DNA of 64,000 nt, taken from Mobula hypostoma. Its lineage: Eukaryota. This document shows, piece after piece, positions 811 to 62,520 of the stretch. Positions within the stretch are counted from its first letter, which is position 1; each line of letters begins with the position of its first letter. The stretch spans positions 95,606,001-95,670,000 of the forward strand of contig NC_086107.1 of the NCBI RefSeq assembly GCF_963921235.1, written 5' to 3'. Below the pieces are notes generated by a model. That model saw only the letters and a list, made by a program, of their open reading frames with translations, was not told the DNA's origin and did not search any database. The translations under genes were made by a program, and so were the position numbers.

Positions 811-872
811 GCAAATTAGAACTGCGTTTTGAAGAGCTATTTTCGAGTGAGCAAAAGCATGAAGGAAACATT
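811..872 (+). CDS. Probable internal exon of the KASH gene (KLELRFEELFSSEQKHEGNI)
   Basis: Very strong acceptor ttttttttctgttttgcag and a single open frame. Donor ATT|GTTAGT gives phase 0, compatible with 8486. The 3' boundary is uncertain (alternative GTGAGC at 847). Confidence 0.55.
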
Positions 873-8485: not shown

Positions 8486-8541
8486 TGCATCAGATGGAAT
8501 GTGATGCAGACAGAGTTGGCAGCATCAGCAACTGATGTGAA
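8486..8541 (+). CDS. Probable penultimate exon of the KASH gene (CIRWNVMQTELAASATDV-K)
   Basis: Acceptor ttttttcattttaatttaatag and donor AA|GTGAGT inside a repeat-free island. Only one frame is open and it ends in phase 2, as needed to join 28752 in the KASH frame. Confidence 0.7.
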
Positions 8542-12059: not shown

Positions 12060-15000
12060 CGGCTAAGAGAGGCAGATAATAGACTCTCTTTGTCTAGAGA
12101 GTCTTCGGCGAGGAGGCTGAGGGAGGAGACTACGCCACAGTTGGAGAGGGTGAGAAGTGGTGAAGAAATGACAGGACAACTGATTCAGTGTGCTTCTTGC
12201 ATGATGTGAGAGGTCAGGACGTTGATGGTGCCTCTGACTGCTACAAATTTTGGAAATTGTGTCCAGGTTCAGCTCCTGAAGGACCGTGTTGAGGCACTGG
12301 AGAGGCAACTGGATGACCTCAGGGTCATCCAGGAAACAGAGATTTTTCTGGACAGGACCTGTAGTGGGATCGTTACACTGAAGATACCGGAAGAGAGAAA
12401 GGGGCTGATGATGAGGAAGGGATGGATGCTTGGAGTACAGGAGACCCCGGGGGGATGTGCCTCTTGAAAAAAGGTTCACCCTCTTGGAAGCTGTCGGGAC
12501 AGAAGACAGTGCCAGTCTGAGAGGCGGACAGGTCTGCAAGTCAAAAATTGGCGCTGAAACAAAGCCGAGGAGACAGATGTCAGCCACAGCCGTGGTAATA
12601 GGGGACTCCATAGTGAGAGGTACAGATAGGGGTTTCTGCGGCAACAGGTGGGATTTAAGGATGGTGTGTTGCCTCCCTGGTGCTAGGATCCAGGACATCA
12701 GGGACCGATTGCAGGGCATCCTCACAGGTGAAGGTGAACATCCGGAGGTGGTGGTGCATGTCGGCACAAATGACGTCGGGAAGAAGATGAGAGACATTTT
12801 GCAGCGTGACTTCGGAGCACTCTGAAGAAGGCTGAAAAGCAGGACCTCCAGGGTGGTTATATCGGGTTTGCTTCCAGTTCCTTGTGCTGGAGAGGACAGG
12901 AACAGGGAAATAGGGGATCTGAATGTGTGGCTGAGGAGCTGGTGCGGGAAGCAGGGATTTAGATTCTTGGACCACTGGGATCTGTTTTGGGGTAAGGATG
13001 AATTGTACAGAGGGGACAGGTTGCACCTTAACAGACGAGGGACCAGCGTTCTGGCAGGCAGGTTTGCCACTACTACACGGGTGTGTTTAAACTAAGTAGT
13101 GGGGGGAGGGGTGAACTGGAAATTTAAGAATGGAGTTAAAGGGAATGAGAGAATAAGAAAAGTTAAGAAAGACAACAGAATTAAAGGGGCGGAAAGCTCA
13201 GGAAGGGATCGGAGAGTATGGCCAAGTGCAACAGGAATCGATGTAAAAGGTGAGGAGAGTAATGGATTAAAAGTATTATATATGAATGCATGGAGTATAA
13301 GAAATAAAGTGGATGAGCTTGAGGCTCAGTTGGAAATTGGCAAGTATGATGTTGTGAGAATAATAGAGACATGGCTGCAAGAGGACCAGGGCTGGGAAAT
13401 GAATATTCAGGGATATACATCCTATCGAAAGGACAGACAGGTTGGCAGAGGGGGGTGAGGTGGCTCTGCTGGTGAGGAATGAAATTCAGTCACTTGCCAG
13501 GAGTGACACAGAATCAGGAGATGTAGAGTCAGTGTGGATAGAACTGAGAAACTGTAAGGGCAAAAAGACCCTGATGGGAGTTATCTACAGGCCACCAAAC
13601 AGTAGCCTGGATATAGGGTGCAAGTTCAATCAAGAGTTAAAATTGGCATGTCGCAAAGGTAATTGTACAGTTGTTATGGGGGATTTCAACATGCAGGTAG
13701 ACTGGGAAAATCAGGTTGGTACTGGATCCCAAGAAAGGGAGTTTGTGGAATGCCTCAGAGATGGATTCTTAGAGCAGCTTGTATTAGAGCCTACCAGGGA
13801 GAAGGCAATTCTGGATTTAGTGTTGTGTAATGAGCCAGATTTGATAAAGGAACTCGAGGTGAAGGAGCCATTAGGAGGTAGTGACCATAATATGATATGT
13901 TTTAATCTACAATTTGAGAGGGAGAAGGGAAGATCGGAAGTGTCAGTATTACAGTTGAAGAGAGGGGACTATGGACCCATGAGAGAGGAGCTGGCCAAAG
14001 TTGACTGGAAAGATACCCTAGCAGGGATGACAGTGGAACAACAATGGCAGGTATTTCTGGGAATAATACAGAAGGTGCAGGATCAGTTCATTCCAAAGAG
14101 GAAGAAAGATTCTAAGGGGAGTAAGGGGCGACCGTGGATGACAAGGGAAGTCAAGGACAGTATAAAAATAAAAGAGAGGAAGTATAACATAGCAAGGATG
14201 AGCGGGAAGCCAGAGGATTGGGAGGCTTTTAAGGAGCAACAGAAGATAACTAAAAAGGCAATACGGAGGGAAAAGATGAGGTACGAAGGTAAGCTAGCCA
14301 AGAATATAAAGGAGGATAATAAAAGCTTCTTTAGGTTTGTGAAGAGGAAAAAATTAGTTAAGACCAAAGTTGCGCTCTTGAAGGCAGAAATGGGTGAAAT
14401 TATTATGGGGAAGAAGGAAATGGCAGACGAGCTGAACAGGTACTTTGGATCTGTCTTCACTAGGGAAGACACAAACAATCTCCCAGATGTAATGGTGGCC
14501 AGAGGACCTAGGGTAACAGAGGAACTGAAGTAAATTCACATCAGGCAGAAAATGGTGATGGGTAAACTGATGGGACTGAACGCTGATAAATCCCCAGGGC
14601 CTGATGGTCTGCATCCCAGGGTACTTAAGGAGGTGGCTCTAGAAATCGTGGATGCATTGGTAATCATTTTCCAATGTTCTATAGATTCAAGATCAGTTCC
14701 TGCGGATTGGAGGGTAGCTAATGTTATCCCACTTTTTAAGAAAGGAGGGAGAGAGAAAACAGGCAAATATAAACCAGTTAGTCTGACATCAGTGGTGGGA
14801 AAGATGCTGTAATCAATTATAAAAGATGAAATAGCGGCATGTTTGGATAGCAGTGGCAGGATAGGTCCGAGTCAGCATGGATTTACGAAGGGGAAATCAT
14901 GCTTGACTAATCTTCTGGAATTTTTTGAGAATGTAACTATGAGAATGTACATGGGAAAGCCAGTGGATGTAGTGTACCTGGACTTTCAGAAAACCTTTGA

Positions 15001-16164
15001 TAAGGTCCCACATAGGAGGTTAGTGGGCAAAATTAGTGCACATGGTATTGGGGGTAGGGTACTGACATGGATAGAAAATTGGTTAGCAGACAAGAAACAG
15101 AGTAGGGATTAATGGGTCCTTTTCAGAATGGCAGTGAGTGACTATTGGGGTACCGCAAGGCTCGGTGCTGGGACCGCAGCTATTTACAATATACATTAAT
15201 GATTTAGATGAAGGGATTAAAAGTAACATTAGCAAATTTACAGATGACACAAAGCTGGGTAGCAGTGTGAAATGTGAGGAGGATGTTATGAAAATGCAGG
15301 GTGACTTGGACAGGCTGGGTGAGTGGCTAGATGCATGGCAGATGCAGTTTAATGGGGATAAATGTGAGGTTATCCACTCTGGTGGCAAGAACAGGAAGGC
15401 AGATTACTACCTGAATGGTGTCAAGTTAGGAAAAGGGGAAGTACAACGAGATCTAGGTGTCCTTGTTCATCAGTCACTGAAAGTAAGCATGCAGGTACAG
15501 CAAGCAGTGAAGAGAGCTAATGGCATGTTGGCCTTCATAACAAGGGGAGTTGAGTATAGGAGCAAAGAGGTCCTTCTGCAATTGTACGTGGCCCTGGTGA
15601 GACCACAGCTGAGTATTGTGTACAGTTTTGGTCTCCAAATTTGAGCAAGGACATTCTAGCTATTGAGGGAGTGCAGCGTAGGTTCACGAGGTTAATTCCC
15701 GGGATTGCGGGACTGTCATATGTTGAAGGATTGGAGTGACTGGGGTTGTATACACTGGAATTTAGAAGGATGATAGGGGATCTGATTGAAACATATAAGA
15801 TTATTAAGGGATTGGACACGCTAGAGGCAGGAAACATGTTCTCGATGTTGGGGGAGTCCAGAACCAGAGGCCACAATTTGAGAATAAGGGGTAGACAATT
15901 TAGAATGGAGTTGAGGAAAAACTTTTTCACACAGAGGGTTGTGGTTCTGTGGAATGCTCTGCCTCAGAAGGCAGTGGAGGCCAATTCTCTGGATCCTTTC
16001 AAGAAAGGGTTAGATAGAGCTCTTAAAGATAGCGGAGTGAAGGGATATGGGGAGAAAGCAGGAAAAGGGTGCTGATTGTGGATAATCAGCCATGATCACA
16101 GTGAATGGTGGTGCTGTCTCGAAGGGCTGAATGGCCTACTCCTGCACCTGTTGTCTATTGTCTA
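12060..16164 (+). mobile_element. Near full-length, inactivated CR1-clade LINE (ORF1 with SGNH esterase; ORF2 with APE endonuclease and RT)
   Basis: ORF1 remnants CxxC, coiled coil, VIGDSIVR, VHVGTND and LHLN (12168-13095). ORF2 remnants YRPPNS, GDFN, SDHN, KSPGPDG, QHGF, GVPQGSVLGP and FTDD. Several stops and frameshifts. Short tandem 3' tail. Confidence 0.95.
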
Positions 16165-21339: not shown

Positions 21340-21692
21340 TATTTGGGGGCTGATGTGCCTATCTGTTTTCGTTTGTGTGGGAGTTAAGATTTGGGGGTCG
21401 ATGTGCTTGTTCCATTTTGTTCATTTATTTTTGTGCAGGAGGAGAGATTTTGGAGCAGATGTGCCTGTTCCATTTTTGTTCTTTTTTTTTTGTGGAAGGA
21501 GGGATTTGGGGATCAATGTGCTTGTTCTGTTCTGCTGGTTTTTTTTGTGCAGGAGGAGGGATTTGGGGGCGGATGTGCCTGTTCCATTTTTGTTCATTTT
21601 TTTTTGTGTGGAAGGAGGGATTTGGGGATCGATGTGCCTGCTCTATTTTGATAATTTTTTTGTGCAGGAGGAGGTATTTGGGGGCTGATGGT
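21340..21692. repeat. Minisatellite, ~6 units of ~57 bp
   Basis: Unit GATGTGCCTGTTCCATTTTTGTTC(T)nGTG..GGAGGGATTTGGGG.. starting near 21352, 21400, 21458, 21514, 21572 and 21631. Confidence 0.85.
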
Positions 21693-28040: not shown

Positions 28041-28751
28041 AACAGACAAGGCATAGTAGGATATGGTCAGTATATTCTGGCCTTGACTCTGAAGCCTACA
28101 TCCTATAAATGAGTAAAAACAATTCTAAGATGTAGTTTTAAAAGAAATCTCAAAAATTGTGAGATCCGCTGGAGTTAGAGCAATTGAGGAGGATCAAATA
28201 GAAACAGTGATGTTTTTATAATTAGTGACATTTGGTTCTTTATTATAATTAGTGTTTGTAACCCAGTTTTTCTATGGAGTGGAGATGAGTGAATTGAAGT
28301 TTTTTTGTGAAAAAACTCGGTGTTGTTATTACCAGAAATAACATTGTTGCTGAGAAATGGTGCTATTAGATGATTTTGGCAAGATCTTCTGTAATGAACA
28401 ATATAATCATTCAATAAACTAGACATTGTACTTACATTAAATGAGGTTTAATTAAATTTAACTAATATTTGTATAAGTCTCTTCAGAAATATGCATTATA
28501 AATCTCAATTGTTGTGTTCTTAATTTGAAGTTGTTAATGTGCAAAGTTGGAAATTACATAGATGTGTGAAGACACCAACAAAATGATTACCCATAATGTC
28601 ATTTCTAACATTAATGAAAATGTACTAAAGTTGCAATTTTGGACATTTGCAGTAACCAATGGAATAAATATGCTGCATTTTTTTATTTGGACCTACAATG
28701 CCACTCTTGATACAGTATTTAGAATTTTCATTTCCTTTCCCCTCTCTGTAG

Positions 28752-28992
28752 ACATGAAGATCAGCTGGACTCGTCCATTTGGTTTTGTTCGCAGACTAAG
28801 AACTTGTGTCTTGTAAGCTTTTGTTGTTTTTTACTGATGCTTGTGGCTTATTCCTGCTTTTTCTCCTTCTTCCCCGGGTGTTGCCAAAGGTACTCTTCAA
28901 CAGAATGCACAGGCAGCAGCTTCTGGTCATTGTTGAAAGCCTTACTTTGCCCTCAAATCAGGCTAAGGCATGGAGCTCCTCCACCTGTTTGA
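28752..28992 (+). CDS. Terminal coding exon of an IRAG2(LRMP/JAW1)/KASH5-family KASH-domain protein
   Basis: Strong acceptor tttcctttcccctctctgtag|A. Frame reads HEDQLDSSIWFCSQTKN, then a hydrophobic TM LCLVSFCCFLLMLVAYSCFFSFF, then a luminal tail ...FWSLLKALLCPQIRLRHGAPPPV*. The PPPX end and W/L/P/RLRH spacing match the LRMP C-terminus as recalled (WTSLEHILWPFTRLRHNGPPPV). Confidence 0.88.
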
Positions 28993-29016
28993 CTCAGTAA
29001 TCAATGTAATTTTCAA

Positions 29017-29022
29017 AATAAA
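29017..29022 (+). terminator. Candidate polyadenylation signal of the KASH gene
   Basis: AATAAA ~25 nt after the stop, followed by T-rich sequence. Repeats resume at ~29160. Confidence 0.5.
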
Positions 29023-30633
29023 GAGCACTTTTAAATTTTAACTGTTTTAAATGAATTTCATAGTTTTAGCTTATGTATACATTTATTTTTCTGATCACCC
29101 ATAATGCCAGAATAACTGATCATGTAGTTGCTCAGTCTAAATTATGTCTTTCTCTTACATAGAATGTAGAACATAGAACAGTATAGCACAGGAACATGCC
29201 ATTTGGCCCACAGTGTTGTGCTGAACCAGCTAAAAAGCAAATCAAAAACACCAAACACTATTCCTTCCTACCTACACAATGTCTGTGTCCCTCCATCTTC
29301 CTTAAATCCATGTGCTTATCCAAACGTTTCTTAAAAGCCTCTAATGTATTTACCTCTACCACCATACCAGGCAGCGCATTCCAGGCATTCACCACGTGGA
29401 GTAGAAAGCTTGCTCCTCACATCCCCCTTGAACCTACCTCCTTTCGTCTTCAATGCATGTCCTCTGGTATTAGGCATTTCAACCTTGGGAAACAAGTATT
29501 TCCTGTCTACTCTGGCAGATCTCCTCCATTGTTCCATAGAAAACAACCCAAGTCTATCCAGCCTCTCATGATAGTACATGCCCTCTAAACCAGGCAGCAA
29601 ACTGGTAAACCTCTCTATATCCTCTCCAAGGCCTCATCATTCTTCCTATAGTGGGGTGACCAGAACTGTATGCAATACTCCAGATGTGGCCTAACCAGAG
29701 TTTTGTAAAGTTGCAACATAAACTCTTCAGTTTTGAACTCAGGGCCTGAACTGATAAAAGCAAGCATTCCATAAGCTTTCTTAACCATCTTATGAACCTG
29801 TGTAGCCACCTTCAAGGAGCTATGAACTTGGATCCCAAGATCTCTCTGCGCAGCAACACTGTTCAGGATCTTGCCCTGAACAGTGTACTGTCTCCTTTGC
29901 CCTATCAGGGTGCAACACCTCACATTTATCTGGGTTAATCTCCATCTGCCATCTCTCCGCCCATATCTGCAATTGATCTACATCTTTGCCAGTCTTGTAC
30001 ACTACCAACTTTGGTATCATCCACAGATTTATTAACCCACCCATCTACATTTCCATCCAGGTTATTTATATACATCACAAACAGCAGAGGTTCCAGTACA
30101 GATCCTTGTGGAACACCACTGATTACAGACCTCCAGCTCAAATAAGTCCCTTCAACCACCACCTTCTGTCTTCTATGCACAAGCCACATCTGAATCCAAA
30201 CAGCCAATTCACAGACCCCATGCATCTTAATCTTCTGGATTAACCTCCCATAAGGACTTGGTCAAACACCTTATAAAAATCCACATAGACAGATTCCACT
30301 GCCCTACCCCCATCAATCTCTTTCATCATTTTGTAAGGCACAATCTGATGCACACAAAGCCTAATTAGGCAGTGTGTTTCCAAATACTCATAAATCAGAT
30401 CTCTAAGAATTTTCTCCAGCAATTTTCCTACAACTGACATGAGACTTGTCTATAGAGCCAAGTATTTCCTCTTGTTCCCTTCTTAAATACAGGTATAGCA
30501 TACAGCCTCCAGGACCTTGCCTGTGGATAGGGAGGACATGAAGATACTGGTCCCTGAGGACATCCACCTTAATACTCATTAGGAGGCCCAACACTACCTC
30601 CTTGACTTGCAAGCAGCCTTATGTATTTATACA

Positions 30634-31252
30634 ACCAACACACATCAAAGTTGCTGATGAACGCAGCAGGCCAGGCAGCATCTCTAGGAAGAGGTACAGC
30701 CGACGTTTCAGGCCGAGACCCTTCGTCAGGACTAACTGAAGGAAGTGCTAGTAAGAGATTTGAAAGTGGGAGTGGGAGGGGGAGATCCAAAATGATAGGA
30801 GAAGACAGGAGGGGGAGGGATGGAGCCAAGAGCTGGACAGGTGATTGGCAGAAGGGATATGAGAGGATCATGGGACAGGAGGCCCAGGGAGAAGGAAAAG
30901 GGGGGGGGGGAACCCAGAGGATGGGCAAGGGGTATAGTCAGAGGGACAGAGGGAGAAAAAGGAGAGTGAGAGAAAGAATGTGTGTATATAAATAACGGAT
31001 GGGGTACGAGGGGGAGGTGGGCATTAGCGGAAGTTAGAGAAGTCGATGTTCATGCCGTCAGGTCGGAGGCTACCCAGATGGAATATAAGGTGTTGTTCCT
31101 CCAACCTGAGTGTGGCTTCATCTTTACGGTAGAGGAGGCTGTGGATAGACATGTCAGAATGGGAATGGGATGTGGAATTAAACCACACTCAGCAGCAACT
31201 TTGACGTGTGTTGCTTGAATTTCCAGCATCTGCAGAATTCCTTGTGTTAATA
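30634..31252 (-). mobile_element. Penelope-like insertion with a short inverted terminal piece
   Basis: Same family as 61676-62290. CAACACACATCAAAGTTGCTG at the left is mirrored by CAGCAACTTTGACGTGTGTTG at the right. TATTTATACA is duplicated at 30624-30633 and 31253-31262. Confidence 0.85.
30698..30733 (-). ncRNA. Minimal hammerhead ribozyme motif (intact core)
   Basis: Minus strand AGTC-CTGACGA-AGG(GTCTCGG)CCT-GAAAC-GTC-GGCT. One G-U wobble in stem I. Confidence 0.75.
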
Positions 31253-32734
31253 TATTTATACACTCAGCACTGACATCCTGGTTCTCCATACCACTTTCCC
31301 TGGTAAATACCGAAGCAAAGTACCTCACATTCTCCGCATTGTAGCAAATATTCTCCCTTTTATCTTTGAGTGGTTCTGTCCTCTCCTTAGTTATCCTCTT
31401 ACTCTTGATGTATGTATAGAATGGTTTGGGATTCACCTTAGTCCTACTTGCCACGGACTTTCCATGGCCCCTCCTGGCTTTCATAATTCCCTTCATTAGT
31501 TCTTTTCTAGCTTTGTTATACTTCTCATGTACTTCATTTGATCCTAACTCTGAATTCTTACATACTTTTCCTTTTTCTTCTTGACTAAATTCATTCCCTC
31601 TCTAGACATCCAAGGTTCTCTTATCTTTCCATCCCCATCCTTCCTTCTAACATGAAATCACACCTTTACTCTGTGCAGTCGATCTTTAAACCCCTTCCAC
31701 ACGTCTGATGTGGACTTGCCAGAAAAAAAGGTGTTCCCAATTAAATCTTCTTAGTTCCTGCCTAATGCCCTTGTAATTTGTCCTCCAATTTCAAACTCTC
31801 TTGCAGGAACTATAGCTATCCTGAAAGACGATGAGTTGTGGTCACTGTTCCCTGTTTATCCAATGAAAGGTCAGTCACCTGGCCTGCCTCATTAGCCAAC
31901 ACCAGGTCCAGTACAGCCCTTCCTCATGTTGTATGGTCAACATATTGATTTAAGAACCCTTCCTGAATACATTTAACAAATTCTGCCCCATCTAAACCCC
32001 TTGCACCAAGAAGGTCCCAGTTTAAATTAAGGAAATTGAAATCACCCCATGCCAACAACCCATTTCATTTTCACACATTTCCTTAATCTGATTATGTATC
32101 TGTTCCTCAATGTCCCAGTGGCTATAGGGGTGGGGGTGTCTACAGTACAATCCTATCAGTGTGATGCACCCTTCCTATTCCTGAGTTCTACTCAAATGGA
32201 CTCAGTGTTTGACCCCTCCATAAGTCTTCGCTGAGTGCAGTTGTGATATTGTCCTGGATTAGTAGTGCAGAGAGATGGTAGATGGAGACTGGGCAGCCTT
32301 GAAGTCATGCAATTTAGGAAGTCACTGCAGCTATATAAAACATTGGAGAGAGTGCTGCTTGGACGGGAGAAAATAAGCTGTTAGATAAACCTTGATTATT
32401 TTTTTTTCTGGAGCATTAGGGGCTGAGAGGAGACCTGATCAAAGTTTATAACATTATGAGAAGCATTGATAAGGAAAATAGAGTCCTTTTCTCTGGGTAC
32501 AAATGCCAAATACAAAATGTCACAGCTTTAAATTGAGAGAGGATTCTTACATAGTGAGTGGCAAGTGTCCTTTCCACATACAGCGTTTATGAGGCACTTA
32601 GGCACATAAACATGCAGTGAAGTAAAGGATATGGATCATGTGCAGGCAGACAGTTTAGTTTAATTTGGCATCATGCTCAGCACATAGATCATGGACTAAG
32701 GGCCCTGTTTATGTGCTGTACTGTTCCATCTTCT

Positions 32735-33660
32735 AACACAACAGGTCAGGCTGTATCTGTGGAGGCGAAGGGACAATTAACCTTAAGGGTCAACATTTAA
32801 GGCTCAAGATTTTTTGGGGATAAAAGACCAAACCAGTTCCTCTGCATTTTCTTTTGCTTTGCTGGGCTTGTCCTTACCCTCAACAACTTCTCTCTCAATT
32901 TCTCACTTTATGTTGCTCAAAAGGTGCAGTTGCCATGGGCACTTGTATGAGCCCCAACTATGCCTATGTATTTGCTGGCAACTTCAGCACACACCCCTTC
33001 CCCAAATTTTCTGTACTGCATTGCTGACTGCATCTGAGCTATTTCATGCAGTTGTATGTAACTTATCCACCCTTGTCAACAGACTTCCTCAAGTTGCCCT
33101 GGGTTGATTCTGACACTATTCTTCCTTTTCTGGATCACTGTCATCTCTTTTCAATTTCTCCATCTCTGTTGCATCTGACCTCAAGATGTGGCCTTAGATA
33201 ATAGAGTTCAAGCCTTCTGCTGGGGCTTCTGAAATGTCTTCCTGCTTCCTGAAATATGGATTCCCCTCTATGTAGTTGATGGAACTATCACACATATTTC
33301 CTCAATTACCAGCAAATCTTTTTTCCACCCACTAGTCTCCCCCGAGCCATAACAAATTTCCTTTGATTCTCACTGTTCTCCCCACCAGCCTCTGCTTCTA
33401 CATTCTTTGCCATGTCCACCAGCTTGAACATGATCTCACTACCAGTCACATCTGTTCCACACCTGTCTACGATACCCTCCTCAGCAAACCCAGGCACTTT
33501 TGCAATTCTAAAAGGTGTAATTGTCACTTCACATTCTCTGACATTGCTCAGGGACCTAAACATCCCTCTAGGGGTGAGAAAGTCACCTGCATTTCTCCCA
33601 ACCTGCTCTATTTTACGCAGTGATCATAATGTAGCCTTCTCTACATTGGAGAAAGCAAGC
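32735..33660 (+). mobile_element. Highly decayed Penelope-like remnant
   Basis: GTTGCCATGGGCACTTGTATGAGCCCCAACTATGCC (VAMGTCMSPNYA) and a downstream LLYIGE-like remnant. Confidence 0.55.
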
Positions 33661-35536
33661 ATAGCCATAGACCAGTACTGCACTAGAACAGGCTCTTCTG
33701 CCTGCATAGGGCCCATATTGCTCCATTTTCTGCAAATTCGTGTGCTTATCCAAGGGACTCTAAAATGCTTCTATATTTACCTCCACCACCACCACTCCTG
33801 GCAGCACATTCCTGATCACCCTGTATATAAAAAAAAATGCTTCCTCTGCACCATCTCCTTTGAACTTTGCTCTTCACCTTAAGTACATGCTCTCTCGTAT
33901 GAGACATTTTGACCATGGGGAAAAAGGATAGCTGCCGATGCACTTAACTAGTTGACCTACAGTAGATTTTGGTTGCCTCTCAGATGTCACTACTTACAGT
34001 CCACTACACCACCAATTTTGGTGTCATGCCAGCTATATTTTCATTAAAGTTGTTAATATACTTGACAAACAACAGTGGACCCAACACTGGTCATAGGTTT
34101 ACAATGTGAGAAGCAACCACTTTCCGACTCCTAGTTGGCAAGATTACCCTGGATCAGCCAAAAATATTTAATTTTTAGGTGCTTAGGCTTTCAAGAGTTA
34201 TAAGTAGTGCCAAAGTAGTATAATAATCTTATTGAAAAGGTACTTTTTCATGCAATTTAAATAAAATTTTCACCCATTAAGCACCAGGTACTCTAAAACT
34301 GAACAGAGATGTCATGAATACATGATACACACTGCCAGAGGACATAGTAGTATGTTTACCAGGTGTTTGTGCAAACACTTAAAATAGATAAGACATAAGA
34401 GGAGATGGTCCTAAAATGGGCAAATATAGATAGCAAAAGGTGGCATAGCCTGAAGGCTAAAGGGCCTGTTTCTGTACCGTACCATTCAATAACATAGATA
34501 AGAAACTTTGCAATGGGAACTAATAAAAGGCATTACCTAGGGTCAGCATTTTGAGAAACTGGAAAACTTAGTTGAAAAAGACTTGCAAATGGAAATGTTG
34601 GTTGCAAGTTGCATAACAACTTCACCTTTCAAAAGGTAATGATGAATCATGCATTTAAAATGTGATATTGAGTAAAACAGCAGAATAATTTCTCATCTGA
34701 TATTATAGAAACAAAACCATACAATAGAGAATCAGGCCCTTGAGCCCACGCTGTCCATTGTCTGGTGGCAATCCAAATTAATTGCATCTACCTGTATATC
34801 CATGCCTGTAAAATGCCCCTTAAATGCTGCTATCATAATTGCTTCCAATTCCCCTGGCAGTGCAGTCCAGGCACCTACCACTTTTGTGTAATAAAAACCT
34901 TGCCTTGAATATTTCCTTTAAAAACCTACCCCTCTTTCATCTTAAACTTATATCCTCTGTTGGTTCCATCTGGGCTAAAAGACTTTTACTACCTCCTCTG
35001 TAATTTCATATAGTTCTCTTGGGTCACCTCCTTAGCCTCCTAAACTCCAGAGAAAACAACCCAAGTTTGTCCAACACATACGATGCAACATGATTTCCAA
35101 ACTTTTGTACTTAACATCTCAACTGATGAAGGCAAGTATCGTGCACTCTCCTCCATCTTGTGTGCCACTTTCAAAGAGCTATGTACTTGTAACCCAGATT
35201 CTCTCTGTACATCCATGCTCCTAAAAGTCCTGCCCTTTACTGTATACTTTCCTCTCACATTTGATCTCCAAAAGAGCAATGCTTCACACTGCTACAGATT
35301 GAACTCAATCTGCCATTTCCCTGCCCACACTTCTAACTGATCTATATCCTACCCATAATTTGATAATTTTCCTCACTATCCACAACTACGCAAATTCTTG
35401 TCTCATCTGCACTTAATTTTACAGATCCAACATACTAGTTAATGTTCCAGGTCGCTACCGGTGCTACCAAACCTCAGAATAGTTTTGTAATACTTTTGTT
35501 TCTCTTCCCAAGGAAAAAAAAACATTACAGTATCAG

Positions 35537-36447
35537 ACAAAAGTTGCTGGTAAACGCAACAGGCCAGGCAGCATCTCTAGGAAGAGGTACAGTCGACATT
35601 TTGGGCCGAGCCCCTTCGTCAGGATACTGAAAGACCTAGTAAGAGATTTTAAAGTGGGAGGGGGAGAGGGTGGGGGTGAACCAAAATGATAGGAGAAGAC
35701 AGGAGGGGGAGGGATAGAGCCAAGAGCTGGACAGTTGATTGGCAAAAGGGACAGGAGGCCTAGGGCGAAAGAAAAGGGGGGGGGAGCCCAGAGGATGGGC
35801 AAGGGGTATAGTGAGAGGGACAGGGAGAAAAAGAATGTGTGTATATAAATAAATAACAGATGGGGTACGAGGGGGTGGTTAGGCATTAGCAGAAGTTCGA
35901 GAAGTCAATGTTCATGCCATCAGGTTGGAGGCTCCCCCTTGTAGGTTGAAGGAACAACACCTTATATTCTGTCTGGGTAGCCTCCAACCTGATGGCATGA
36001 ACATTGACTTCTCAAACTTCCGCTAATGCCCTACCTCCCCCTCGTACCCTATCCGTTATTTATTTATACACACATTATTTTTCTCTCTCTCTCCTTTTTC
36101 ACTATACCTCTTGTCCATCCTCTGGGCTTCCCCCCTCCCCCTTTCTTTCTCCCTAGGCCTCCTGTCCCATGACCCTCTTGTATCCCTTTTGCCAATCAAC
36201 TGTCCAGCTCTTGGCTCCATCCCTAACCCCTCCTGTCTTCTCCTATTATTTCGGATCTCCCCCCTCCCTCTCCCACTTCCAAATCTCTTACTAGCTCTTC
36301 TTTCAGTTAGTCCTGACGAAGGGTCTCAGCCCAAAATGTTGACTGTACCTCTTCCTAGAGATGCTGCCTGGCCTGCTGCATTCACCAGCAACTTTTATGT
36401 GTGTTGCTTGAAATTCCAGCATCTGCAGATTTCCTTGTGTTTGCGTG
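35537..36447. mobile_element. Penelope-like insertion made of two inverted arms
   Basis: 35537-~35935 is the reverse complement of ~35975-36398. 13-bp duplication ATTACAGTATCAG at 35524-35536 and 36448-36460. Confidence 0.88.
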
Positions 36448-36569
36448 ATTACAGTATCAGTTTTATTTTGTATTATTGGTGTTGCATATCTAATTCAAAA
36501 GGTAAAAGAAGGTACTGATTATTAAAAACACATTCTTTTAAAACAATTGCTAATGCAGTGATTGTAAAG

Positions 36570-39111
36570 AATATCAAAACTGAATCTGTTTATTGGGAAA
36601 TGAAAGCAGAATACCTTGAACTCAGTTTAATTTTGACAAGAACAAGAATTACAGATTGCAGTTTTATTTAAAGTATACTGTAACAATTAATTGAACAGTG
36701 AAATGATCTACTTCAGAAAATGCCAATTTCAACTCTCAGCTCATCAGATGTTTATGAGTTGAAGGCCCACAGCAGCACTGCTTTCAGATGTACCATCTTT
36801 TAAATTAATTTATAAACAGCGGCCCTGTTAAAGCAATTCAGAAAGATAGAAGTTATCTGTGACATTAAAAGGATGAACAGTTTTACCATGTCTGCAAATT
36901 CCATTACAGAAGCAGATACATCAGTTGTTGGGTAAATTGGCAACAAAGTACTGTGAGAATAATCAATTCAGAATTAATTAGCTGGGAACTGTTTCAAATA
37001 TGATAAAGAGCAAGATTGTTCTCAGTAAAGCAGGGAATCTATTATAATACGTGAAAACAGTTTACACTGTTGACCACCTGTCGCAGTGGGTTATTGAAAT
37101 ATAAACTAACAATGGACATTTTCACCATTTGAAGGGAATAACAAGTCATTCAGTCTATTCATTTTTATAATCTATTTGTAGAACTGCAAAATAGGATTTG
37201 CAAAATAGATTTAACATGTTAAGTATAATCAAATGTGAATAGATTGTCCAAACCTTTTTAAACTTGGTCAATAAAGTATTGCAAGATATTTTGTTAGTGA
37301 TTGATTTGCAAATATGGTTCATCTTTAAATATTTTTATCTTGGACAATGGGTTTAATGCTGTCCAAATAACAAGAAATGAGCCATAATCAGTCACACATA
37401 TAGTAAGTTTAAGTTAAGCTGTAAATTAGTTTTTGTCTGAAAGTAAAAGTCGCATAAAGACAAGAGGCAAGTTAATGGAAAAGATTCTGGAACTGGCACC
37501 AGGCTGTTGACTAAATGGCAACACGTCATCTTTGTATTACATTAATCAGTAAATCAGTTGAGAAACAAACTCATATTATTGAAACATCCAGTAACTTTGT
37601 ACATACTAAATTATACAAGTTGTGGAGGAGATTGCCACAGAGTTGTGGTACTTATTCATCACACAAAGAGGACACTAGTGGTCCTCCAAACATGACACCT
37701 TTCACAACAGATGTGATGAAGTGTGCCAATTGACACTGGAACCCATTGGGCAACAATAACTGTTTGCACAGAATTAAACTTCTTTGAAATCAAAAACAAA
37801 AATACTTAGGTTCAGCAAGCTAACTGAATAATGATCCCCCCTCTCCAGCATTTACATTATTTTACAAACTCCAAATTCTGAGGCCAAAAACTTGGGCTAC
37901 GACTCTTCACAAAATCATTACTCATATGGCATATCACTCTTTCGATACAACATTTGTAAAGATTATATATTCTTGGACTATTTGTAGAATGCTTTTATCC
38001 TGAATGATTTTTACTTAAGTTGATCTCAAGCCTTCCATTATTTTTCTGTGGAACTGTGAAGCAGGGAGTGAAACATAATAATTGGCAGTTCTCCAGTCAG
38101 TTGAAGGTGGATAGGCATTTCTATTTGAGGACTGCAATTACAATCTTTCACTATAGTTTGTTTTCCATGTTTGGAAGAAATGAATAATTCAGGCCACAGA
38201 CTATGACAGCTACTATTAACAGCACTGAGTACAGTTATTAATTCCTGTGTATTCTAAACTTCATTGCAATGAAATAGTCCAAGTTCAGATCCAATTCAAC
38301 AGCAGTTCCTGGCTATCTTCCAGTGGAATTAAAATGTAAACTATGATACTGACAATTGGAGCTGCAATTTCACATCTGTAACCAGTTTGCATTTACTTCT
38401 GTTAACTCTTTTCTAAGTTCTTTATATCCAGATTATACCATTAACAACAGCATTCTTCATTTTCTTGAAATCTTCATATCTTAGTCAATGCAGATAGCAT
38501 CATGCACATAGATCCTGCATATAAAGCATTTCACGGGGAAGTGTTCAAATGTTTAATGGCATTATTGAATAGCAAGAGAAAGGATGTGTATCGTTCTGTC
38601 TGAGGTCTTAACCCAGGCACCAGTGACAAGAAATATTCACTGCAACTAAACAAAATTGACATGGCTCTCTCAGCCTCCTCTTCGTTAATCAGCAGGATCA
38701 CTACTGGCTAAGTTACCGGAAGGCTTACAGTATCACACAATTGTATTGACAGTTTAAAATCTGCATTTGTAAAAAAGGAAACTTTTCAGTACAAGTGTTC
38801 AGCATTGCAACAGCTTTGGAATTTAAACTTACGATCTTTTCACAGACACTGATTTCTGGCATCCCCACTAATAACAGCAGTGGTGAACTTAAAAATGCTG
38901 CAGTAGCATTTCAAAAGCTGCATGATCTGTACTTGGAAACCACAGCTTTTACTGTATCATCCGATAATCTCATTTCCTCTGGGTGTTCAGTTAGTGGAGA
39001 GAGCAAGGTTCAGGTAGGGTTGGACAGTGGTGTTAGTTAAAGACGGTTAGTTTCAATTTGCTCCCTTCTGATATGCAACACTTGCAAATTAAGATCAAGG
39101 TCCAAGTTACT
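36570..39111 (-). other. Putative long 3'UTR of the RAS gene
   Basis: About 2.5 kb of AT-rich sequence with no repeat I could recognise, directly after the stop codon. It ends at minus-strand AATAAA hexamers. Confidence 0.6.
36589..36594 (-). terminator. Candidate polyadenylation signal of the RAS gene (second candidate at 36663-36668)
   Basis: AATAAA on the minus strand followed by a U/GU-rich tract (TGTTTTAAAAGAATGTGTTTTT) at the end of the unique region. Confidence 0.5.
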
Positions 39112-39228
39112 TTAAAGAATTATGCACTTCTTCTTTGAAGGCTTTTTCTTCCTTTTACCATTTTTGCTGATCTTCTCCTTGTATTTACGAATTTCACGCA
39201 CTAATGTATAGAATGCATCTTCCACACC
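39112..39228 (-). CDS. KRASBL: KRAS4B-like GTPase, coding exon 4B-type ([38 protein letters not shown])
   Basis: Read directly from the sequence (too short for the ORF track). Acceptor ttctaatttcag|GGT. Length 117 nt including TAA. Polybasic tail plus CaaX; total protein 188 aa. Confidence 0.96.
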
Positions 39229-39904: not shown

Positions 39905-42166
39905 AGAAACATAGAAAATAGGTGCAGGAGTAGGCCATTCGGCCCTTTGAGCCTGCACTGCCATTCAGTATGATCATGGCTGATCATCCAACTCAGAACC
40001 CTGTACCAGCCTTCCCCCCATACCCCCTGATCCCTTTAGCCACAAGGGCCATATCTAACTCTCTCTTAAATATAGCCAATGAACTGGCCTCAACTGTTTC
40101 CTGTGGCAGAGAATTCCACAGATTCACCACTCTCTGTGTGAAGAAGTTTTTCCTAATCTCGGTCCTAAAAGGCTTCCCCTTTATCCTCAAACCGTGACCC
40201 CTCGTCCTGGACTTACCCAACATCGGGAACAATCTTCCTGCATCTAGCCTGTCCAATCCCTTTAGGATTTTATACGTTTCAATAAGATCCCCCCTCAATC
40301 TTCTAAATTCAAACGAGTATAAGCCTAGTCGATCCAGTCTTTCATCATATGAAAGTCCTGCCATCCCCAGGAATCAATCTGGTGAACCTTCTTTGTACTC
40401 CCTCTATGGCAAGAATGTCTTTCCTCAGATTAGGGGACCAAAACTGCACACAATACTCCAGGTGTGGTCTCACCAAGGCCTTGTACAATTGCAGTAGTAC
40501 CTCCCTGCTCTTGTACTCGAATCCTCTTGCTATGACTGCCAGCATACCATTCGCCTTTTTCACCGCCTGCTGTACCTGCATGCCCACTTTCAATGACTGG
40601 TGTATAATGACACCCAGGTCTCGTTGCACCTCCCCTTTTCCTAATCAGCCACCATTCAAATAATAATCTGTTTTCCTGTTTTTGCCACCAAAGTGGATAA
40701 CCTCACATTTATCCACATTAAATTGCATCTGCCATGAATTTGCCCACTCACCTAACCTATCCAAGTCACCCTGCATCCTCTTAGCATCCTCCTCACAGCT
40801 AACACTGCCGCCCAGCTTTGTGTCATCCGCAAACTTGGAGATGCTGCATTTAATTCCCTCATCCAAGTCATTAATATATATTGTAAACAACTGGGGTCCC
40901 AGCACTGAGCCTTGCGGTACCCCACTCGTCACCGCCTGCCATTCTGAAAAGGTCCCGTTTATTCCCACTCTTTGCTTCCTGTCTGCTAACCAATTCTCCA
41001 TCACATCAATACCATTCCCCCAATACCGTGTGCTTTAAGTTTGCACACTAATCTCCTGTGTGGGACCTTGTCAAAAGCCTTTTGAAAATCCAAATATACC
41101 ACATCCACTGGTTCTCCCCTAACCACTCTACTAGTTACATCCTCAAAAAATTCTATGAGATTCATCAGATTTTCCTTTCACAAATCCATGCTGACTTTGT
41201 CCGATGATTTCACCACTTTCCAGATGTGCTGTTATCACATCTTTGATAACTGACTCTAGCATTTTCCCCACCACCGATGTTAGGCTTAACCCGTCTATAA
41301 TTCCCCGGTTTCTCTCTCTCTCCTTTTTTAAAAAGTGGGGTTACATTAGCCACCCTCCAATCCTCAGAATCCCTTCAATTTACCTAACACCACTTCCCTA
41401 CTAACATGCATTTCCCTCAGTTCCTCCATCTCACTAGACCCTCTGTCCCCTACTATTTCCGGAAGATTATTTATGTCCTGCTTAGTGAAGACAGAACTAA
41501 AGTAGTTATTCAATTGGTCTGCCATGTCCTTGCTCCCCATAATCAATTCACCTGTTTCTGTCTGTAGGGGACCTACGTTTGTCTTAACCAATCTTTTTCT
41601 TTTCACATATCTATAAAAGCTTTTACAGTCAGTTTTTATGTTCCCTGCCAGTTTTCTCTCATAATCTTTTTTCCCTTTCCTAATTAAGCCCTTTGTCCTC
41701 CTCTGCTGGACTCTGAATTTCTCCCAGTCCTCAGGTGAGCTACTTTTTCTGGCTAATTTGTATGCTTCTTCTTTGGAATTGATACTATCCCTAATTACCC
41801 TTGTCAGCCACGGGTGCACTACCTTCCCTGATTTATTCTTTTGCCAAACTGGGATGAACAATTGTTGTAGTTTATCCATGCGATCTTTAAATGCTTGCCA
41901 TTGCATATCCACCGTCAACCCTTTAAGTGTCATTTGCCAGTCTATCTTAGCTAATTCATGTCTCATACCTTCAAAGTTACCCCTCTTTAAGTTCAGAACC
42001 TTTGTTTCTGAATTAACTATGTCACTCTCCATCTTAATGGAGAATTCCACCATATTATGGTCACTCTTACCCAAGGGGCCTCTCATGACAAGATTGCTAA
42101 TTAACCCTTCCTCATTGCTCAATACCCAGTCTAGAATAGCCTGCTCTGTAGTTGGTTCCTCGACAT
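39905..42166 (-). mobile_element. 5'-truncated young CR1 LINE in RAS intron 3
   Basis: ORF2 pieces KSDHN, GVPQGSVLGP, FADD and RPHLEYCVQFW. TTTCTATG-type tail at 39905. Internal deletion near 41364. Confidence 0.93.
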
Positions 42167-45100: not shown

Positions 45101-46409
45101 TGATGCTATATATCCCAGAAAGTAGTAAGTGAGGAGATTGCTGTGGCTTTGACAAAGATCTTTGTTTCTTCACTAAGCAACAGGCGAGGTCCCAGAGGAC
45201 TGGATTGTAGCAAATGTTATGCCGATGTTCAAGGAGGAAAATAGGGATAATTCAGATAATTATAGGTCAGTGAGCCTCACATCAGTGGTAGGGAAGCTAC
45301 TGGAGAGGATACTGAGAGACAGAATTTACACACATTTGGAAAGGCATGAACTGCATAGGGACAGCGAGCATCACTTTGTGCGGGGAAGGTCTTGTCTTAC
45401 AAACCTGAAAGAGTGAGAGGAAAGCTTAGTGAGGGTAAGGCCAAGGACATCATCTACATGGAGTTTAGTAAGGCATTTGATATGGCTCCTCATGGTAAGT
45501 TGATTCAGTAGATAAAGATGCCTGGGAGCCAGGTGAATTGCAAGTTTGGACTCAGAACTGGCTTGCGTACAGAGTAAGGGTGGAAGGTTGTTATTCTCAC
45601 TGGAGGTCTGTAGCCGTTGATATTCCGCAAGGATCTCTATTATTTGTGACGTGCGTCAATGATTTGGATGAAAATGTGGTTGGGTGGATAGCAAATCTGC
45701 AGCTCACACCAAGATTGGAGGAGTTGTGATAAGCATGAGGGACTGTGAAAGAATACGGCAGGATATGGATCAGTTACAGATATGGGCAGGGAAGTATAAA
45801 TCTGCATTAAAGTCAACACGACATCAAGTGTCCTGTCCAGTGCTGCACTAATTCTATGCATCTTAATATATCAAAGTTCCTGTTATTTACTGTACATGTC
45901 CCAACAGAATCTGACTGCCCAAAAGGGAATTGCTTTTGACTTGTCCACATTAAAAATCAGTATTATGAAAGAGGATGAACTAGCAGTCCTGAGGTGTAAA
46001 AAATGGATGAATCTGCAGGACATATCAAGCATATCCGAGGATGTTGTGGGAAACTAGAAGAAATAGCCAGCAGAGATCTTTGTATCTTTCTCGATAGATG
46101 TATCTCCATGGCGAGGAAGATACAAGACTGGAGGATGTCAAATGTGCCTTTATTTAAGGACAGTTGCATGGACAAGCCAGGGAAGTACAGGTCTGTGAGC
46201 CTGATATCAATCGTGGGAAAGTTACTGGAGAAAATTCTGAGACACAGAATCTACCTGCATTTGAAAAGGCAGGGACAGATGAGTTTTGTATGTGGGGAAT
46301 CATGTCTCACTGATTAGATCAACTTTTTGTTTCGAAGAGGTGACCAAGAGGATTGATGAGAGCAGAGCAGTGGATATTGTCTATTTTAACTTTACCTAGG
46401 TCCCAAATT

Positions 46410-47315
46410 CTGTCTTGTCTCCCTTTCTCTTCACCATTTACACCTCGGACTTCAACTACTGCACAGAGTCTTGTCATCTTCAGAAGTTTTCTGATGACTC
46501 TGCCATAGTTGGATGCATCAGCAAGGGAGATGAGTACAGGGCTACAGTAGGAAACTTTGTCACATGGTGTGAGCAGAATTATCTGCAGCTTAATGTGAAA
46601 AAGACTAAGGAGCTGGCGGTAGACCTGAGGAGAGCTAAAGCACCGGTGACCCCTGTTTCCATCCAGGGGGTCAGAGTGGACATGGTGGAGGATTACAAAT
46701 ACCTGGGGTTACGAATTGACAATAAACTGGACTGGTCAAAGAACACTGAGGCTGTCTACAAGAAGGGTCAGAGCCATCTCTATTTCCTGAGGAGACCGAG
46801 GTCCTTTAACATCTGCCGGACGATGCTGAGGATGTTCTATGAGTCTGTGGTGGCCAGTGCCATCATGTTTGCTGTTGTGTGCTGGGGCAGCAGGCACTAA
46901 CAGAATCAAGAAACTCATTCATAAGGCCGGTGATGTTGTGGGGATGGAACTGGACTCTCTGACGGTGGTGTCTGAAAAGAGTATGCTGTCCGAGTTGCAT
47001 GCCATCTTGGACAATGTCTCCCATCTACTACATAATGTACTGGTTGGGCACAGGAGTACATTCAGCCAGAGACTCATTCCACCAAGATGCAACACAGAGC
47101 GTCATAGGAGGTCATTCCTGCCTGTGGCCATTAAACTTTACAACTCCTGCCTTGGAGGGTCAGACATCCTGAGCCAATAGGCTGGTCCTGGACTTATTTC
47201 CTGGCATAGTTTACATATTACTATTTATTTATGGTTTTATTACTATTTTTTATTTATGGTGCAACTGTAACGAAAACCAATTTCCCCCAGGATCAATAAA
47301 GTATGACTATGACTA
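46410..47315 (+). mobile_element. Rex1/Babar-type LINE 3' fragment
   Basis: SPFLFTIYTSD...QKFSDDSAIVG...LNVKKTKEL...YKYLG RT motifs. Tail AATAAAGT(ATGACT)n. Confidence 0.85.
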
Positions 47316-48413: not shown

Positions 48414-48573
48414 CTGTCTTGTTTTGGCTGATGTTTCTACGAATGGGATTCCATAACTCTTTGCCAATTGCTGGGCTTGCTTTGTGTCCACAGTGCGTGA
48501 TGGAAGGTCACACTTGTTTCCAACCAGTACCATGGGAACGTCATCAGAGTCTTTAACACGATTAATCTGTTCC
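48414..48573 (-). CDS. KRASBL: KRAS4B-like GTPase, coding exon 3 (aa 97-150, [23 protein letters not shown]...ETSAKTRQ)
   Basis: Acceptor atttcag|G and donor CAG|GTATAA. Length 160 nt. NKCD and SAK motifs present. Phase matches exon 2. Confidence 0.97.
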
Positions 48574-55156: not shown

Positions 55157-55335
55157 CTGTACAGGTGGACATCCTCGAAAGATTTGATGTTATTGATAGC
55201 AAAAACACAGAGGAAACCTTCCCCTGTTCGCATGTACTGATCTCTCATAGCACTGTATTCCTCTTGACCTGCAGTGTCCAGGATATCTAGTAAACATGTT
55301 TCTCCATCAATGACCACTTGTTTCCTGTAGGAATC
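55157..55335 (-). CDS. KRASBL: KRAS4B-like GTPase, coding exon 2 (aa 38-97, DSYRKQ...DTAGQEE...FEDVHLYR)
   Basis: Acceptor tttgcgcag|GAT and donor CAG|GTTAGT. Length 179 nt as in classical RAS genes. Contains DTAGQ (switch II). Confidence 0.97.

Positions 55336-61675: not shown

Positions 61676-62520
<845 letters not shown>

Follow-up and report, generated by a model that had tools for sequence, protein, structure and literature searches.

Which of the vertebrate RAS blocks is carried by a locus of the ray Mobula hypostoma in which a KASH gene on the plus strand and a RAS gene on the minus strand run towards each other: the counterpart of human IRAG2 (LRMP) and KRAS on 12p12, or a sister copy of that block? 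The window, by which we mean the whole stretch of 64,000 nucleotides (nt) that was analysed, covers positions 95,606,001-95,670,000 of contig C45 within a 3.48-Gb assembly; C66 and C5 are other contigs of the same genome, and P0001-P0005 and similar labels are ids of database proteins used as comparison sequences. Our answer, held with high confidence, is that the window contains the facing 3′ ends of KASH5 (plus strand) and KRASBL (minus strand), in the copy of the block that corresponds to human 19q13.33 and is an ohnologue of the other IRAG-RAS blocks. The closest named proteins to the window genes were all from rays and sharks. An initial annotation of this DNA had described a convergent KASH gene and KRAS4B-like gene with stop codons about 10 kb apart, and the stop-to-stop spacing was measured as 10,119 bases; the limits that it gave, 28752 and 39228, are indeed, to the base, where the last KASH5 exon and the last coding exon of the RAS gene begin.

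Two genes with facing 3′ ends

KASH5 is a tail-anchored dynein adaptor on the outer nuclear membrane, acting in meiosis; KASH5/CCDC155 is said to go back to work by Morimoto in 2012. The end of the gene lies in the window as follows (coordinates without a contig label are window positions).

811-872, plus strand: antepenultimate coding exon of KASH5, placed by tblastn with P0001, P0003 and P0004, with an AG acceptor before 811 and GT at 873
8486-8541, plus strand: penultimate coding exon of KASH5, 100% identical to residues 298-316 of P0004, with AG before 8486 and GT after 8541
28752-28992, plus strand: last exon of KASH5, preceded by its AG acceptor (28750-28751) and closed by TGA (28990-28992)
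29017-29022, plus strand: AATAAA 25 nt past the stop, which would likely be used as the KASH5 poly(A) signal

In translation, the last exon has a hydrophobic stretch, a candidate transmembrane span, and a tail that ends in PPPV and would be the luminal KASH peptide. It matched no Pfam family at E ≤ 1, and the KASH domain of KASH5 has been described as degenerate (Horn et al. 2013, PMC3787381). Four of 12 candidate database proteins matched this exon, with 89% identity for P0001 and 71% for P0002. Both full-length matches (P0002 and P0003) carry EF-hand_9 (PF14658) and KASH_CCD (PF14662) above the Pfam cut-offs, and P0004, which is 96-100% identical to the last two KASH5 exons of the window, has a KASH_CCD match at 9.6e-38. 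These N-terminal domains were read in the database relatives, and the matching upstream exons of the ray were located by genome search. Nine of the 12 genome matches of P0002 are colinear along C45:95,453,888-95,634,989, with the upstream exon matches at C45:95.454-95.577 Mb; the extent of KASH5 is therefore 181 kb, of which the window takes in no more than the last three exons. No match to MRVI1 (PF05781) was found by Pfam at E ≤ 1 in P0001-P0004 or in the last exon, and none of the 10 genome matches of the PF05781 profile, which was searched with a stricter first pass, falls at the window locus. In trees of the shared N-terminal region, the batoid relatives cluster with the proteins named 'KASH5' in coelacanth and 'KASH domain containing 5' in horse, and none of the 42 rows of the KASH5 group in a 90-row tree has an MRVI1-like C-terminus.

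Judged by its domains, its colinear exons and its clade, the plus-strand gene is KASH5 and not an LRMP-type gene. The initial annotation had called it LRMP-type, a label that fails by Pfam for want of MRVI1, while its description as a KASH gene stood, as did the kinship with LRMP through the shared N-terminal domains; between the two names that it had offered, KASH5 or an LRMP ohnologue, the evidence selects KASH5. When the KASH tail was compared with its own genome, it found only itself, the next best match having E 0.075; the IRAG paralogues have tails that have diverged too far for detection with this query. A contig of 269 letters from run X2 aligns to 28752-28953 from letter 68 on, with its first 67 letters mapping elsewhere. 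The breakpoint at 28752 fits a KASH5 transcript spliced to the preceding exon, a weak hint given that the RNA status of the run is a guess.

A HMMER search with P0002 returned 236 proteins at E ≤ 0.001, and 41 of these were scanned against Pfam. EF-hand_9, KASH_CCD and MRVI1 were joined in 23 of the 41 scanned relatives, MRVI1 occurred with one other of these domains in two, and EF-hand_9 and KASH_CCD only were present in 16. The three-domain proteins bear the names IRAG2/LRMP or mrvi1/IRAG1, and their sources are gar, teleosts, frogs, snakes, lungfish, sharks, rays, platypus and bats; on the evidence of these domain combinations KASH5 is a relative of LRMP, as had been claimed at the outset. 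This is consistent with Horn et al. (2013, PMC3787381), whose route to KASH5 was the extension at the N-terminus of zebrafish Fue/Lrmp and who suggested that a gene was duplicated and 5′ or 3′ exons were then lost. The long form is absent from human and mouse LRMP according to the same source; three-domain IRAG2 isoforms were seen here in platypus and bats, and the long form is therefore not confined to fishes. The ray gene shares with KASH5/CCDC155 and with zebrafish Fue/Lrmp an EF-hand-like domain, a coiled coil and a putative KASH tail of degenerate type that ends in PPPV, and, in agreement with Horn et al. (PMC3787381), it is related to the extension at the N-terminus of fish Lrmp. It differs from Fue/Lrmp in that a cartilaginous fish already has KASH5 as a gene of its own, nearer by tree to IRAG1 than to IRAG2/Lrmp.

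The minus-strand RAS gene was read as four coding exons.

62324-62434, minus strand: coding exon 1 of KRASBL, with the ATG at 62432-62434
55157-55335, minus strand: coding exon 2 of KRASBL, in the RAS reading frame with AG/GT borders
48414-48573, minus strand: coding exon 3 of KRASBL, in the RAS reading frame with AG/GT borders
39112-39228, minus strand: coding exon 4 of KRASBL, with the end of helix alpha5, the hypervariable region and the stop, 97% identical to P0005 over the exon

The exons are 111, 179, 160 and 117 nt long, with AG/GT at every internal border, introns in phases 0, 2, 0 and an intact frame of 188 amino acids (aa). An AG directly upstream of exon 1 suggests a possible non-coding exon beyond the window. 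The tail has a KEK motif, a polybasic run, a Ser four residues before the Cys and a CIIL end, which is predicted to be a CaaX box of the geranylgeranyl type. No exon 4A was found at the window, where there is a single exon-4 match against two (4A and 4B) at the KRAS locus. The protein is identical to P0005 of the elephant shark at 184 of 188 residues (97.9%); P0005 is named 'GTPase HRas-like' in the database, and its name and tail agree with 'shark.KRASBL' in Suppl. File 1 of PMC9882654. Identity to the paralogues of the same genome is lower, at 90.4% for KRAS4B, 86.2% for NRAS and 84.6% for HRAS, and in a 14-row RAS tree the window gene pairs with P0005 with support of 98/96. Two rattlesnake proteins named 'KRas' (P0006 and P0007) proved KRAS4B-like rather than KRASBL-like in their G-domain and were not used as KRASBL.

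KRASBL has been defined by four coding exons with intron phases 0, 2, 0 and by a tail with a K/R-E/D-K/R motif, a polybasic domain of at least four basic residues, an S/T before the CaaX box and a final L or F (PMC9882654). All of these features were found in the window gene: the exon and phase layout, the tail and a CaaX box ending in L. It also has a locus separate from KRAS and without exon 4A, and orthology to published KRASBL sequences. On this sequence evidence, the minus-strand gene is KRASBL, the fourth classical RAS of jawed vertebrates. It agrees with the KRASBL of García-España & Philips (2023; PMC9882654) in exon structure, phases, tail, lack of 4A and its neighbours ccdc155/KASH5 and pth2, and shows no difference in kind, being the orthologue in another ray. 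The suggestion that the pair marks the fourth RAS lost by mammals is borne out as well, since KRASBL is given as missing from mammals and birds (PMC9882654).

One could suppose that the RAS gene of the window is silent or in decay, a duplicate heading for the loss that mammals underwent. Its frame is open over 188 codons with canonical splice sites throughout, and the 97.9% protein identity to the elephant-shark orthologue indicates long purifying selection on KRASBL; we consider decay very unlikely.

Between the two stop codons, the following features were distinguished.

29000-32500, no strand assigned: interspersed repeats, with blastn copies and word depth up to 6x10^4
29938-30261, minus strand: reverse-transcriptase remnant, a weak RVT_1 match
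35400-36500, no strand assigned: high-copy repeat in two copies of opposite orientation, recognised from blastn copies, word depth and mirrored open frames
36500-39111, minus strand: probable 3′ untranslated region (UTR) of KRASBL, unique sequence that follows the RAS stop directly and has no repeat copies

The interval holds 121 open frames (38 aa or longer, both strands); 120 had no Pfam match at E ≤ 0.01, and one gave a sub-threshold reverse-transcriptase match. By blastn, 32% of the interval has copies in about 240 kb of other DNA of the same genome, at 29.0-32.5 and 35.4-36.5 kb, and word depth at these places reaches 10^4 in the contigs of four public runs; the two segments are therefore high-copy repeats. 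Contigs of the four runs gave very high depth on repeats and almost no cover over 36.7-39.4 kb. Minus-strand A[AT]TAAA motifs occur at 38557, 37357, 36668, 36631 and 36594, and 36.5-39.1 kb is probably the KRASBL 3′UTR, with an extent that we infer. The claim that only repeats and UTR separate the genes thus holds for what was detectable, its UTR part being of the same inferred kind; 32.5-35.4 kb is the part of the interval to which no gene, repeat or UTR was assigned. Neither LYR (ETFRF1) nor Casc1 (DNAI7) gave a signal among the open frames of the interval by Pfam, or near the window in the genome search.

The four RAS blocks of the genome

A RAS exon-3 peptide gave 12 matches in the genome, four of them 86-100% identical and the other eight at most 56%, and the genome holds four classical RAS loci. 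KRAS lies at C66:7.169-7.188 Mb (plus strand) with alternative last exons 4A (palmitoylation-type) and 4B (polybasic), NRAS at C5:121.09-121.12 Mb by a reading of its last exon, and HRAS at C45:1.464-1.475 Mb with a tail ending CVIL, an ending known for HRAS of cartilaginous fishes (PMC9882654). All 10 genome matches of PF05781 (MRVI1) adjoin one of these three genes.

C45:1.74-1.78 Mb, minus strand: four MRVI1 matches near HRAS
C66:7.40-7.42 Mb, minus strand: four MRVI1 matches near KRAS
C5:120.97 Mb (120,970,285-120,972,557), plus strand: two MRVI1 matches near NRAS

The C45 exons belong to IRAG1 (89-100% identity to stingray mrvi1, clade support 100/99) and those of C66 to IRAG2, pairing with whale-shark IRAG2 at support 100/97. 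The C5 gene is a divergent third copy on a long branch beside IRAG2 (support 86/79). It lies 120 kb upstream of NRAS, and its core exons are only 35-53% identical to IRAG1 and IRAG2 proteins. No IRAG-like gene is known beside NRAS in mammals. A gene of this type beside NRAS is labelled 'iragl', without comment, in Suppl. Fig. 7 of PMC9882654, which also places hras with irag1 and kras with irag2.

Exons resembling the EF-hand and coiled-coil exons of KASH5 were also observed 200-290 kb upstream of the MRVI1 exons of ray IRAG1 and IRAG2.

C45:2,050,109-2,073,096, minus strand: KASH5-like EF-hand/coiled-coil exons of IRAG1, mapped on small genome stretches
C66:7,626,162-7,626,341, minus strand: KASH5-like EF-hand/coiled-coil exons of IRAG2, mapped on small genome stretches

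The order on C66 is KRAS (plus strand), an ETFRF1-like LYR gene at 7,261,661 (minus), DNAI7 at 7.31-7.33 Mb (plus), where both Casc1_N matches of the genome are found (two of two), and IRAG2 (minus). This is the mirror image of KRAS-ETFRF1-DNAI7-IRAG2 of human 12p12, and the 12p12-type features of KRAS (exons 4A and 4B; ETFRF1, DNAI7 and IRAG2 as neighbours) are all on C66 and not at the window. ETFRF1 and DNAI7 are absent at the window because both are single-copy genes of the 12p12-type block; the initial annotation had asked for them between the two stop codons, and both were found on C66 instead. Human KRAS, ETFRF1, DNAI7 and IRAG2 are likewise grouped together in Suppl. Fig. 7 of PMC9882654.

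Past the end of the window, C45:95,800,101 (plus strand) carries PTH2 (TIP39 family, E 9.7e-14), 130 kb from the RAS start, and a complete glycogen synthase gene with 11 of the 34 family matches lies at C45:95.822-95.893 Mb (+154 kb). A neurotrophin gene at C45:90.32 Mb, 5.3 Mb from the window, scores about equally with BDNF and NT-4, and a TEAD exon lies at C45:103.7 Mb. A clear BDNF is found on the HRAS side at C45:25.03 Mb; on C66, the KRAS contig, there are a second glycogen synthase and a neurotrophin that is clearly NT-3. In human, KASH5, PTH2, GYS1, NTF4 and TEAD2 belong to 19q13.33. Flanks of the 19q13.33 type (PTH2, glycogen synthase, NT-4-like neurotrophin) are supported for the window, and synteny, which had been named as a check on the origin of the pair, does not point to 12p12. 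In shark, skate, coelacanth, frog and lizard, krasbl stands with ccdc155, pth2, dkkl1, tead2, cd37 and gfy (Suppl. Fig. 7, PMC9882654).

Three further observations concern these neighbourhoods. The HRAS-IRAG1-TEAD-BDNF and KASH5-KRASBL-PTH2-GYS blocks share one contig of 117 Mb (C45; 1.46 against 95.65 Mb). C45 also has a third complete gene for glycogen synthase, at C45:52,341,383-52,434,179 (plus strand), and a lone glycogen-synthase-like exon at C45:95,760,345-95,760,461 (minus), on the opposite strand between KRASBL and PTH2. The KASH5 isoform X3 of the coelacanth and its KRASBL of PMC9882654 have consecutive RefSeq accession numbers, which hints that the two genes are adjacent there too.

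The reading that we prefer is that KASH5-KRASBL is one of four ohnologous blocks, the others being IRAG2-KRAS, IRAG1-HRAS and IRAG-like-NRAS; KASH5 and KRASBL are linked by descent, with no functional tie implied. Several points weigh against it. The RAS tree is an open polytomy in which the conserved G-domain leaves the order of KRASBL, KRAS, HRAS and NRAS unresolved; no direct evidence of KRASBL expression was obtained for this animal; the PF05781 and P0002 genome searches used a stricter first pass, so that weak extra copies may have been missed; and BCAT (PF01063), an expected marker, gave no matches genome-wide from four candidates, which is uninformative. The comparison with 19q13.33, moreover, presumes the human gene order given above.

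A different origin, by lineage-specific segmental duplication within cartilaginous fishes rather than in the early vertebrate genome duplications, might be read from the presence of the HRAS and KRASBL blocks on the same chromosome-scale contig. We give this very little credence: the two blocks are 94 Mb apart on C45, each block is flanked by different PTH2-type, glycogen synthase and neurotrophin paralogues, the KASH5 clade ranges from sharks to mammals, and KRASBL orthologues are reported from lizard, frog, coelacanth, reedfish, skate and elephant shark (PMC9882654). The remaining alternative, that the window is the 12p12 KRAS-IRAG2 orthologue from which ETFRF1 and DNAI7 were simply lost or moved, accounts for a KASH-type gene convergent with a KRAS4B-like gene as on human 12p12, yet it has next to no probability, being refuted by the separate KRAS with 4A and 4B on C66 and by the LYR gene, DNAI7 and IRAG2 beside it, and disfavoured by a window RAS without a 4A exon and a partner without an MRVI1 domain. 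The initial annotation had named 12p12 flanks around the sole LRMP-RAS pair of the genome as the outcome that would speak for simple loss or relocation; what was found is four RAS loci, each with a neighbour of the IRAG/KASH5 family, and the true 12p12 block on C66. With human IRAG2(LRMP)-DNAI7-ETFRF1-KRAS of 12p12.1, the window has in common a convergent IRAG-family gene and polybasic RAS, as would be expected of ohnologous blocks. It differs in lacking ETFRF1 and DNAI7, in having KASH5 without MRVI1 as the partner, and in a RAS gene without 4A and with a CaaX box of geranylgeranyl type; the true orthologue of the human block is the one on C66.

Pairing of the blocks and the published record

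The position of KASH5 among its relatives bears on which block is the nearest twin of the window. The 90-row tree was made by a quick method only, and the careful tree of the EF-hand/coiled-coil region used 33 rows chosen from the 90, with 57 left out. In the careful tree, the IRAG1-type rows group at 100/100, invertebrate, lamprey and gnathostome IRAG2 group at 100/99, and KASH5 stands on the IRAG1 side; constraining KASH5 with IRAG2, or IRAG1 with IRAG2, was 41.6 log-likelihood units worse, and both constraints were rejected (p-AU 1.1e-4 and 8.5e-5). The tree of IRAG1, IRAG2 and KASH5 that had been proposed as a check thus gives KASH5 as a separate clade on the IRAG1 side, in a topology whose rooting hangs on long invertebrate branches, whose groups were partly named after the first tree was seen, and in which the NRAS-linked row is a long branch. 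Identities run in the same direction, the EF-hand exon of ray IRAG1 being 48-51% identical to KASH5 proteins against 36-42% to IRAG2 proteins, and that of ray IRAG2 35-38% identical to KASH5 proteins. The NRAS-linked gene, as noted above, stands beside IRAG2, and neurotrophin scores show the same pairing, with the NT-4-like gene highest with BDNF and the NT-3-type gene, after NT-3, next with NGF. The RAS gene itself cannot arbitrate, given the polytomy and the mixed signals of the variable G-domain sites among RAS paralogues.

From these trees and scores, we tentatively suggest, at less than even confidence, that in the second round of duplication the KASH5-KRASBL block may have arisen as the twin of IRAG1-HRAS (11p15-type), with IRAG2-KRAS pairing with IRAG-like-NRAS. 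The initial annotation had called the locus the whole-genome-duplication sister of IRAG2-KRAS; this stands for an ohnologue in the broad sense and not for the nearest twin, since KASH5 groups with IRAG1. The published scheme derives KRASBL from KRAS and NRAS from HRAS on a tree of last exons (PMC9882654). The neighbour-gene trees conflict with its KRAS-to-KRASBL step, and the grouping of KASH5 with IRAG1 is one new point in that conflict. If the IRAG1-HRAS pairing were true, the published scheme would rest on shared ancestral tails. In that case, either the RAS gene before the duplications would have had last exons of both the palmitoylated and the polybasic type, which were differentially lost, or RAS and its neighbours would have been exchanged between duplicate chromosomes. 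The conflict between RAS tails and neighbour trees also bears on whether KRAS acquired exon 4A by a late insertion or kept it as an alternative exon from the ancestor.

The gene and its neighbourhood are already published, in 'Origin and Evolution of RAS (Oncoprotein) Membrane Targeting' by García-España & Philips (2023; PMC9882654). In the main text of that paper, KASH5, LRMP and CCDC155 do not occur, and the neighbourhood is given only in a supplementary figure. Within the literature searched, KRASBL appears by name only in PMC9882654, no paper on a HRAS/KRAS/NRAS paralogon was found, and the literature on a fourth RAS or RAS ohnologues yielded one unrelated structural paper, which repeats the scheme KRAS to KRASBL and HRAS to NRAS. 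An explicit statement that KASH5-KRASBL is an ohnologue of the IRAG-RAS pairs may thus not be in print, though data showing it are. The ray locus provides an independent chromosome-scale confirmation that the fourth RAS exists and sits between KASH5 and PTH2, and all four RAS paralogues of this animal retain a neighbour of the IRAG/KASH5 family. The loss of KRASBL in mammals would be placed in the KASH5-PTH2 interval of 19q13.33, presuming the human order as given above. The practical value is modest because gene and neighbourhood are in print.

Repeats in the introns

An Rfam scan of the whole window gave no matches. Remnants of LINE elements, with pieces of endonuclease (Exo_endo_phos_2) and RVT_1, lie within the introns of both KASH5 and KRASBL.

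13403-15641, plus strand: LINE remnant, intronic Pfam match
40648-41034, minus strand: LINE remnant, intronic Pfam match
46400-46897, plus strand: LINE remnant, intronic Pfam match

The segment 46400-46897 (plus strand) also matches ALKBH8_N, a short family (E 2.7e-9); the match appears to be to the tail of a retroelement rather than to a gene. The last KASH5 intron contains a minisatellite at 21388-21690 with a period of 57-59 (or 115, a double unit), about five copies and 73-86% matches.

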